From a candidate division WOR-3 bacterium (GTDB lineage: Bacteria > Hydrothermota > Hydrothermia > JBDRYB01): a stretch of DNA of 64,000 nucleotides. A program made the position numbers and the translations under genes. Below the pieces are notes generated by a model. That model did no database searches. It saw only the letters and a list, made by a program, of their open reading frames with translations, and was not told the DNA's origin. This document shows, piece by piece, positions 4,804-7,107 of this stretch. Numbering within the stretch: the stretch's first letter is position 1; every line of letters starts with the position of its first letter. The stretch is taken from positions 32,001 to 96,000 of the forward strand of contig JBDRYB010000004.1 in NCBI GenBank assembly GCA_039803205.1, read 5' to 3'.

Positions 4804-4904
4804 CGGCTCGTGAGCGGGCAAAATGCCCTTGAGTTTCAGAACCGGGTCGGGATTCCCTGAACGCGATCGTCAAATAGCGCATTACAAAGCCAAAATTTCA
4901 CCAC

Positions 4905-4936
4905 TTGACACACACACACACACAACAGAGCATAAT
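4905..4936 (+). promoter_or_regulatory. Sigma70-type promoter TTGACA-N20-CATAAT whose spacer is mostly a CA dinucleotide tract
   Basis: TTGACA 4905-4910, CATAAT 4931-4936, SD AAGGAGG 4962-4968, ATG 4971. Confidence 0.7.
4908..4924 (+). repeat. (CA)8 simple sequence repeat
   Basis: acacacacacacacaca read directly; the only such tract I noticed in the window. Confidence 0.95.
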
Positions 4937-4970
4937 TTGGGGCCGCGGGCCCGTGGCCCGCAAGGAGGTT

Positions 4971-5489
4971 ATGATGAAGGGCTTCATAAAAACACTGGTG
5001 GCCGCGAGCATGACGCTCGCTATGGGATGCTCAAGGGACTGGATGGATTGGCCCTTGAGCCCGACTGAGGACGGAAAGGTGGTCATAGAAGGCGGAGGCG
5101 GAGAGGAGCCGGATTGGCAAGAGGCTTTCCCGGCAACAGTATATGGGACGATCCACTGGTGGCGGACGGATATAATGGGTAGCAATGGCTACATATATGT
5201 GTATGATGCGAACAGAAACTGCATATGCTCTCGTTACTGGGGATTTGTTATCCATGACCCCCAGCCCTTTGATGTATGCGGATGTGACCTCAGAACAGAT
5301 CGTCCGCTTCCCTGGTATGTGTGCGGAGAGGCATATGACGGCAACCTAGACATGTATTGGCACGACGAGGACACCATAACAGATCTCTCCGGTCGGTATA
5401 ACTGTCCAGGATTCAGGAAGAAGGCCCCTTCCACCGGAATAGATCTTTACCTTGGAGACCCTGGGCCGTGTCCGGAGTGTGAACAGTGA
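4971..5489 (+). CDS. Cys-rich orphan lipoprotein
   Basis: SD then MMKGFIKTLVAASMTLAMG-C lipobox; 8 further Cys (CIC, CGC, CPEC etc.). Confidence 0.75.
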   Translation: MMKGFIKTLVAASMTLAMGCSRDWMDWPLSPTEDGKVVIEGGGGEEPDWQEAFPATVYGTIHWWRTDIMGSNGYIYVYDANRNCICSRYWGFVIHDPQPFDVCGCDLRTDRPLPWYVCGEAYDGNLDMYWHDEDTITDLSGRYNCPGFRKKAPSTGIDLYLGDPGPCPECEQ

Positions 5490-5493
5490 ATCC

Positions 5494-5535
5494 AAACCCC
5501 CTGGCGCAGGTTGAATCCCACGAGCCAGGGGGTTT
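5494..5535 (+). terminator. 12-bp inverted repeat (putative terminator) overlapping the next gene's promoter
   Basis: AAACCCCCTGGC (5494-5505) / GCCAGGGGGTTT (5524-5535); the loop contains TTGAAT, 18 bp before TATTAT 5535-5540. Confidence 0.55.
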
Positions 5536-5547
5536 ATTATGTATGTC

Positions 5548-7107
5548 ATGATGCTGACAATGATCATCCTTTCACAGGTTGTCCAATGGGAGATTTTGTC
5601 TCCCTATCAGGGGTTTGGTCCTGGCAACAGAAATATCATGATACTACAGGATGGTATTCTCATCTTTGGGGGTAATAGACGAGACCCTTTGGGCGATACC
5701 TGTTGGGGTTTCTGCACAGGGGTGGACACGGCAAGTGGAATAACTCTCTGGGAGCATGAGTTCACCAACTACGAGAAGAGCATCATGTTCACCTTCGCTA
5801 AGGGAAAAGGAGAGTTTTTCAGCATAGGCCAGTGTTATACATCCTCCAATAATGACATCCTGGTTGCAAAGCTTGACGAATCAGGAAACTTGCTCTGGGA
5901 GAGACGAACCGGGAACCCTCTCTACGATGGCGCGGTGACATCAGCATTTGTGGATACGGGAGGCAATCTAGTTGTGGTTGGATGTGAATATGAGGAGAAT
6001 ACAGACATTTACATCCTTTCGTGGGATAGCGATGGCAATCTCAGATGGAGTTTTTCTTACGACTCGCCCTGGCACAAGGACGATTTTTCCTTTTCAGCAG
6101 GCATGGACGAGGAAGGAAGCACATATGCTGTTGGATATTATACGGGCCCGATAAAGGGAAAATGGACTGTGGCCCCCATGATCTTTGAGCTCAGCGAGAA
6201 CGGGAAACCAGGAATAACTTCTGGGCCTGCTGATACTTGCTATGGTCTCACTCCCCTCGTGATCAAGGTTGACAGCTCAGGGAACCTTATCTGGGTTGAT
6301 GATTGCGAATACTGGAATGTTGGTGGTGAGCTCATGTTTGCCGAATATAGCTTTGGAAGGTTATATGCCTCTGGTTTTGCCTGCAATGGCGACCTATATT
6401 CCCAGTGTGAGGATAAACAAGGTTTTCACTTTTGGCACGCTTGGGAAAACCAGAACTTCTTGACCATGGAGCCTCACGGCGGCTTTGTCGATATGCACGG
6501 GAATCTTTACCTCACTGGCCACAAGTGCAATCCGGGTCCGGATGCCTTCTTTGTCTCATATACCTTTTATGGAGAGAGAAGGGTTTTTAGAGAAGTGTTT
6601 CCTGGCTATGGAACGAGGATTGTGGGGGATTCGCTTGGAAATCTTTTTATCGGCGGAAGAGTGATAGATTCAATAGGCAAGGACTTCGCTGTTGCTAAGC
6701 TAGATACCTTGGGCAATCTCATATGGCTATACCGAAAGGACGACGGAACTCCCGACACCAATCAACCCGATCAATGTCTCGGACTCCTCCCGGACAATCG
6801 GGGAGGCGTATTCGCTACTGGTATGCTTTATGATTCTGTCATGACCCCTATTCACTATGTCGTTCATCTCGCTGATACGACAAGCGGGGTCAAGGAGAAT
6901 AAAAACCCTAAACCCGGCCTCACCATAATCCCCGCTCCCTCCGGCTTCTATATAACCGGCCCCTCAGGCGAGGCGAGGATTTACGATTCGGCTGGCCGGC
7001 TTGTTATGGCCAGGGAAATAAAGGGCAAGACCCTGATTAGCCCCCTGGTGCCCGGGGTCTATTTCGTGGTTGCTGGGAAGGAGAGGGTGAAGGTAGCGGT
7101 CCGCTAG
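5548..7107 (+). CDS. Secreted beta-propeller repeat protein with T9SS-like CTD
   Basis: Repeats of VAKLDxSGNLLW; C-terminal ARIYDSAGRLV...PGVYFVVAG...KVAVR; start could be 5539 or 5548. Confidence 0.8.
   Translation: MMLTMIILSQVVQWEILSPYQGFGPGNRNIMILQDGILIFGGNRRDPLGDTCWGFCTGVDTASGITLWEHEFTNYEKSIMFTFAKGKGEFFSIGQCYTSSNNDILVAKLDESGNLLWERRTGNPLYDGAVTSAFVDTGGNLVVVGCEYEENTDIYILSWDSDGNLRWSFSYDSPWHKDDFSFSAGMDEEGSTYAVGYYTGPIKGKWTVAPMIFELSENGKPGITSGPADTCYGLTPLVIKVDSSGNLIWVDDCEYWNVGGELMFAEYSFGRLYASGFACNGDLYSQCEDKQGFHFWHAWENQNFLTMEPHGGFVDMHGNLYLTGHKCNPGPDAFFVSYTFYGERRVFREVFPGYGTRIVGDSLGNLFIGGRVIDSIGKDFAVAKLDTLGNLIWLYRKDDGTPDTNQPDQCLGLLPDNRGGVFATGMLYDSVMTPIHYVVHLADTTSGVKENKNPKPGLTIIPAPSGFYITGPSGEARIYDSAGRLVMAREIKGKTLISPLVPGVYFVVAGKERVKVAVR

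Follow-up and report, generated by a model that had tools for sequence, protein, structure and literature searches.

Promoters controlled by a simple repeat between the -35 and -10 boxes have been described mainly from host-associated bacteria, according to the available part of the literature that surveys them (PMC3899988). In Haemophilus influenzae, the hifA/hifB fimbrial promoter carries (TA)9-11 between its two boxes, as reported in the available sections of two papers (PMC3899988, PMC2651432). The accessible text of the former also includes porA of Neisseria meningitidis, which has a poly-G tract in the -35/-10 spacer, and the vlp lipoprotein family of Mycoplasma hyorhinis, which is controlled by promoter repeats (PMC3899988). 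Phase variation itself is defined by its high frequency and its reversibility within a clonal population, in the wording of the part available (PMC11868660). No literature pairing WOR-3 with phase variation was found in a search outside which most subscription papers fell.

The window, by which we mean the whole stretch of 64,000 nucleotides that was analysed, belongs to contig C4 of G000, a 2.3-Mb WOR-3 genome. A preliminary description of this DNA had reported a TTGACA box running into (CA)8, with a 20-bp spacer to CATAAT, followed by a GC hairpin, a strong Shine-Dalgarno site and a lipoprotein gene. The promoter elements and the AGGAGG site are confirmed at their coordinates (Table 1), and the spacer of the lipoprotein promoter is indeed 20 bp long with eight CA units. 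The hairpin stands only in part: the inverted repeat is present and is not exceptional (z -1.07), and what homologues keep is a stem in a shifted register. This shifted stem has the same 7 bp with a compensatory change in G001 C75, G-U pairs in L048/L049 and 5 bp in the copy on contig C6 of G000; it is not kept in L054, G002 C85, G002 C89, G001 C355 or the copy on contig C38 of G000.

Table 1 Position of the promoter, lipoprotein and propeller features in the window
Feature	Position	Strand	Remarks
Upstream part of the promoter module, common to the C6 copy	4848..4904	+	87% identity over 117 bp; contig pieces
-35 hexamer TTGACA	4905..4910	+	Its final CA counts as the first unit of the run; TTG and C invariant in 8 aligned module copies
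(CA)8 run setting the spacer	4909..4924	+	Spacer = 2n+4 with the 6-nt linker
Linker ACAGAG, 6 nt, from the run to the -10 box	4925..4930	+	6 nt in every copy with at least 5 units, in three sequences
-10 hexamer CATAAT	4931..4936	+	CATAATTTG invariant in 8/8 aligned copies
Inverted repeat of the preliminary description	4940..4959		Read from the sequence
Predicted 7-bp stem-loop, 5' end of the putative transcript	4945..4961	+	Shifted register kept in homologues
Shine-Dalgarno site AGGAGG	4963..4968	+	Read from the sequence
Predicted lipoprotein, 171 aa: Cys19 lipid anchor, flexible linker, beta-sandwich with 8 more Cys	4974..5489 (start 4971/4974)	+	Sequence and model
Strong hairpin, then T-rich tail	5494..5535	+	-25.7 kcal/mol, z -4.32, 0/200 shuffles as good
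Second, fixed-spacing promoter-like site TTGAAT-18-TATTAT for the propeller	5511..5540	+	Overlaps the hairpin; 7 nt before the ATG at 5548
Secreted SBBP-type beta-propeller with C-terminal sorting-like domain	5548..7107	+	Partner gene

The locus was compared with the genomes of its genus (the window's own G000, G001 and G002; 86-98% complete) and with four hot-spring metagenome runs from a single study (X1 to X4), examined as contigs. Runs X1 and X2 are possibly the source of the window DNA, and X4 represents a slightly different strain; contigs omit rare variants, so that the run length given for a population is its assembled allele only. The promoter module is present in 14 assembled records, from the three genus genomes and seven JGI metagenome records. 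These records are interrelated, with about 11 distinct combinations of locus and cassette, and do not represent independent events. The JGI records have 64-78% DNA identity to G000.

The (CA)8 run is the longest dinucleotide run of the 2.3-Mb genome and its sole CA run above five units. Both strands of G000 together hold 282 CA runs of three units, 12 of four, one of five and one of eight, and by extrapolation about 2.5e-4 (CA)8 runs would be expected in the genome, a rarity beyond chance. The only other dinucleotide run above five units, a (CT)7 on C38, begins within a -35 box, as does the sole (CA)5, which lies on C6. Of 185 promoter-like sites whose spacer measures 17-18 bp, only 2 contain a run of at least four units. 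Eight units are also present in the contigs of X1, X2 and X4, which rules out an assembly artefact. The promoter has between its -35 and -10 boxes the over-long simple repeat by which promoter-spacer phase variation is recognized.

Repeats of other kinds are found elsewhere in the genus. Eight homopolymer sites of G000 were viewed. At two promoter-like sites (C13:42572 and C13:47310), a run of eight C directly precedes TATAAT (TTGCAA, 17-bp spacer), and the genes behind them look secreted. A run of 17 G lies in a non-coding stretch (C41:3580), and runs of 13 and 16 C adjoin an assembly gap (C14:4896-4990). In G001, a secreted-looking gene at the end of a contig has a (CT)9 within the part that encodes its signal peptide (L035, C12:5370-5387), from its position a candidate frameshift switch. 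The other (CA)5-6 runs of G001 and G002 lie inside genes, outside promoters, and were set aside.

The lipoprotein promoter belongs to a family of modules. Its copy on C6, 87% identical over 117 bp, has (CA)5 and heads a shortened lipoprotein gene and a propeller gene. The module spacers measure 20, 14 and 18 bp in G000, 10 and 14 bp in G001 and 16 and 12 bp in G002; in the JGI records they measure 14 bp (five records, two cassettes) or 16 bp (two records). The spacer is even in 14/14 assembled module records (10-20 bp), the unit being CA or CT. At least three species retain the run, whose unit has changed and whose linker has stayed at 6 nt. Among the eight aligned copies the boxes are invariant, while the upstream sequence varies between species. 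The only 18-bp copy is the CT copy on C38, in front of a radical SAM gene; a 7-unit copy in front of a lipoprotein gene was seen in none of 13 assembled records and none of the four runs (contigs). The five 14-bp JGI records have an invariant five units, with ATA replacing the start codon.

The number of units also differs between populations. Relative to the 5-unit C6 copy, the contigs of X1, X2 and X4 have an additional TGTGTG (8 units) and that of X3 an additional TG (6 units). The alleles within the species, with 5, 6 and 8 units, lie on either side of 7, and the changes come in whole CA steps. In X3, both upstream flanks stop at the run and only the C6-type leader continues, the window-type leader being without cover; the 6-unit allele therefore comes from one of two loci and, whichever it is, the assembled genome has another number of units there. 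In X4, eight units are found at the MFS locus despite four differences in 444 bases, and the 8-unit contig adjoins both the window-type and the C6-type leader. A k-mer depth model with a plain state of 8 + 5 units fits X1 and X2, mixtures being indistinguishable from it. Close relatives with conserved boxes thus vary by whole repeat units, the 6-unit allele belonging to one of two loci. The preliminary description held that the repeat sets the spacer, which is borne out, and that its length should be counted in relatives, among which the tract is not invariant.

The C38 copy (G000 C38:11666-13116; L018, L067) has (CT)7 and heads a radical SAM/SPASM maturase-like gene, whose best NCBIfam match, TIGR04334, is below cut-off. 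The gene is followed by a short Cys-containing ORF ending at the contig end. From its spacing, this locus would be a candidate switchable peptide-modification cluster, predicted to be ON.

Beyond the genus, the design is rare. In 272 genomes of the phylum, TTGA(CA or CT)4+ with a -10 box behind it occurs in 3/3 genus genomes and in 8/269 others, the latter with 4-5 units only; runs of at least six units in spacer position are found in this genus only. Among 185,579 species genomes, a scan from which near kin were possibly left out, there are five other matches with at least six CA units. The same design is seen in unrelated genomes: Campylobacter sp. UBA1713 (L078; (CA)8, 22-bp spacer), a Planctomycetaceae MAG (L077; (CA)7) and another bacterium (L075; (CA)7, 20-bp spacer). 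The module pattern has no record in the genome-contig collection, where near kin may be left out. Viral contigs gave 41 matches, of which the six opened are unrelated sites with five units and a spacer of 10 or 17 bp; the remaining 35 have the same 22-base match length.

The spacings usual in G000 bear on the state of each allele. Between TTGAnn and TATAAT boxes, the spacer is 16 bp at 5 sites, 17 bp at 40, 18 bp at 104, 19 bp at 11 and 20 bp at 2; with a ribosome site downstream, the corresponding figures are 2, 26, 55, 3 and 1. Strict TTGAC[AT] boxes have their mode at 17 bp (9 sites, versus one at 18 bp). Promoter-like sites of this genome favour an 18-bp spacer with TTGATC, TTGAAA or TTGAAT and a 17-bp one with TTGACA, and several TTGACA..TATAAT pairs at 8-9 bp spacing precede genes. 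Since the module varies in 2-bp steps and its spacers are even, 17 bp can never be reached. The genome norm of 17-18 bp makes it likely that the 20-bp spacer is inactive. Seven units would give 18 bp, a normal spacer class, so that an ON state at seven fits these statistics; six units would give 16 bp, which is at background level, and are perhaps ON. The states proposed in the preliminary description, OFF for (CA)8 and ON for (CA)7 or (CA)6, are consistent with this norm for eight and seven units and lose ground for six.

The predicted lipoprotein begins with MKGFIK and has the nine Cys reported before. Its lipobox is less regular than had been assumed, as Cys19 is preceded by Gly and by a non-canonical A-M at -3/-2 (A-M-G-C). 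The G-C end is kept in most homologues, L054 being without the Cys. The gene had been called an orphan, a label contradicted by paralogues on C24 and C6 and by homologues in both other genus genomes; homologues were found in 0/38 other genomes of the class. Two large protein searches gave six matches each, with one homologue, 55-60% identical, named candidate division WOR-3. Searches for the family in Pfam and NCBIfam gave no match, Foldseek gave none at E <= 0.001, and all Atlas matches were under 0.8. The 15 aligned rows have in common three invariant Cys and a PxPW motif; a chance repeat match (P0010) and two fragments (P0001, P0009) were excluded, and P0005 is represented by L007. In the AlphaFold2 model, an all-beta domain (mean pLDDT 83.4) follows a disordered segment of residues 1-30. 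The best structural match among 48,161 chains is the pilotin ExsB (PDB 2yjl; Z 9.2, rmsd 3.0, 95 aligned, 15% identity) and the next pilotin is the Vibrio cholerae alternative pilotin (PDB 5wec; Z 8.2, rmsd 3.2, 97 aligned, 8% identity), with scores that barely exceed those of generic beta-sandwiches (Z 6-7.9). The structure prediction and homologue search suggested earlier have thus yielded relatives within the genus and, in place of a catalogued family, a predicted small beta-sandwich whose nearest matches, with middling scores, are pilotins, a likeness that shows no function.

The lipoprotein gene heads a genus-restricted family of lipoprotein and beta-propeller cassettes, which differ behind the same promoter. 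In the window its neighbours are an MFS gene, the propeller gene and sppA. G002 has no cassette between MFS and sppA, and the one found there in G001 is decayed, its CT run interrupted; the putatively controlled gene is accessory and, by prediction, of the surface type. Cassette types cross species, and L049 and L054 have their upstream gene and promoter in common and different cassettes behind them. Another paralogue, present in contigs of X1 and X2, has the stretch 5001-5114 of the window in common; its flanks were not found in the assembled genome. On C24 (C24:27500-27984, L010), a paralogous cassette has a lipoprotein without signal peptide or promoter module; it is possibly a silent donor or a remnant.

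The propeller matches NF047494 (E 3.8e-14) and TIGR04183 (E 0.0037), both below cut-offs. The hairpin behind the lipoprotein gene is likely the terminator of its transcript, to judge from its sequence; hairpins are found at this place in other cassettes too, and the terminator scan did not list this one. A TTG...-17/18-TA...T site precedes the propeller gene in 8/9 cassettes, L054 having only TATAAT; at L048 the script reads 16 bp, with an 18-bp reading visible in the same line. The fixed spacers of the propeller promoters serve as an internal control, which implies that the repeat governs the lipoprotein alone. Lipoprotein and propeller identities are correlated across eight cassettes (Spearman 0.88, 28 pairs; the truncated C6 omitted), a correlation that can be explained by linkage alone.

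Mismatch repair is known to limit the slippage of repeats. MutS_I, MutL and NucS were found in 0/3 genus genomes (86-98% complete), versus MutS_I in 38/38 and MutL in 16/18 other class genomes. This loss is one event in one lineage.

Several scenarios may explain these observations. The CA run sets the distance between the boxes, and both copies and populations differ in it by whole units, so that slippage probably switches the promoter. As assembled, with (CA)8 and 20 bp, it would be OFF; with 7 units and 18 bp it would be ON, and perhaps also with 6 units and 16 bp. The slips would go unrepaired and be reversible. The switched transcript would end at the hairpin and cover the lipoprotein only, while a separate promoter of fixed spacing would serve the propeller. 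The lipoprotein would be a disulfide-bonded, membrane-anchored beta-sandwich acting with the propeller at the cell surface as an anchor, a chaperone or a cap. Collapse of a run to five units or fewer would lock that copy OFF, and its cassette would then decay or serve as a recombination donor. The genus is a free-living one from hot springs, so that host immunity cannot drive the switch; the likely selective force would be a cost of surface display that fluctuates, phage being an example.

Alternatively, silencing could be one-way: a promoter once active at 18 bp would have slipped from 7 units in each copy, and the cassettes would now be decaying. Without mismatch repair, and with loss of expression neutral or favoured, slippage would be real and no switch maintained. 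This would explain why no lipoprotein copy has 17-18 bp and why most short-run copies head damaged genes. At five units or fewer, C6 has an internal deletion, the five JGI records have lost their ATG, G001 C355 has a deletion and a lost start, and G002 C89 is without a cassette. Such a distribution fits locking-off by contraction and feeds the one-way account as well. Damage extends even to 16-bp copies (a frameshift in L049, a stop in the propeller of G002 C85). Nevertheless, the gene pair of the window is intact and a single slip from 18 bp, and G001 C75, with 4 units yet an intact lipoprotein, is an exception among the short-run copies. Moreover, cassette types are common to several species, and neutral decay would not have preserved, in at least three species, a run whose unit has changed and whose 6-nt linker is constant. 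One-way silencing seems rather unlikely.

The promoter could also be graded or otherwise regulated. Either 16 bp (6 units) would work, or an activator or read-through from the MFS gene would suffice, the repeat tuning the level or being irrelevant. The 16-bp spacer is the commonest among the copies that keep their ATG (G002 C85, L049, L054) and is found in run X3 too, yet 16-bp spacers are at the genome background. The MFS gene is co-directional, with only a weak hairpin in between (z -0.32; 5-bp stem), but the C6 and G001 C75 copies are divergent from their upstream gene, so that read-through is not general. The two G000 copies have about 57 bp in common ahead of the -35 box, whereas between species this upstream sequence varies and the two boxes are invariant. 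Such regulation seems quite improbable. Finally, a chance microsatellite or an assembly error with no bearing on expression is very hard to sustain and largely refuted: TTGACA itself gives the first CA unit, and short (CA)4-5 runs of fixed length stand behind TTGA in unrelated genomes and in the 41 viral contigs, but the expected count of 2.5e-4, the eight units in contigs of three runs and the presence of another unit at the same position in homologous promoters speak against it.

Slippage switching, which remains the favored explanation, may be part of a wider arrangement. It is conceivable, though doubtful, that the genus has a two-tier surface variation, in which a portable module (promoter plus leader, with CA or CT as slippage dial) occupies several sites and is combined with recombining cassettes in a thermophile without mismatch repair. 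As part of the same tentative picture, at least four old, species-crossing types of lipoprotein and propeller cassettes might have been exchanged behind the module. The propeller would be made constantly, and the dial might then decide whether its lipoprotein partner is present; the dial might also have been recruited for the radical SAM gene, suggestions to be taken with equal reserve. In this uncultured genus of hot springs, the candidate switch goes together with an absence of MutS/MutL that is particular to the lineage and with surface cassettes that can be exchanged. Whether contingency loci against phage are maintained in free-living thermophiles is the question that this case raises.

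The comparison with known systems depends on the level that is considered. In its predicted fold, the product resembles ExsB (2yjl) and the V. cholerae alternative pilotin (5wec), which are also small lipoprotein beta-sandwiches; unlike these pilotins, the WOR-3 lipoprotein has no adjoining secretin gene and has eight extra Cys. In the vlp family of M. hyorhinis, the spacer repeat is a poly-A tract and the genes share a leader. As in vlp, several lipoprotein genes have a common promoter and leader, a spacer repeat of their own and a differing mature part. Contrary to vlp, the repeat is a dinucleotide, the product is a folded Cys-rich beta-sandwich instead of a repeat protein and there is a propeller partner; no sequence relationship is claimed. 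In porA, too, the repeat lies between the -35 and -10 boxes, and the gene encodes an envelope protein, as far as the available part of the source describes it (PMC3899988). Its 1-bp steps allow graded levels, whereas the 2-bp steps of the WOR-3 promoter skip 17 bp. As in hif, a dinucleotide run alters the spacing of the boxes by 2 bp at a time, the gene behind it encoding a surface structure (a predicted one in WOR-3), and some strains have collapsed or interrupted runs, in the accounts of hif given by the accessible sections (PMC3899988, PMC2651432). The WOR-3 promoter, whose switching is predicted, differs in its unit (CA or CT), in a run that begins within the -35 box, in its single direction, in the multi-copy nature of its module and in its free-living hot-spring host. 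Taken together, the locus likely represents a mechanism of the known hif, porA and vlp type in an unexpected, free-living host.
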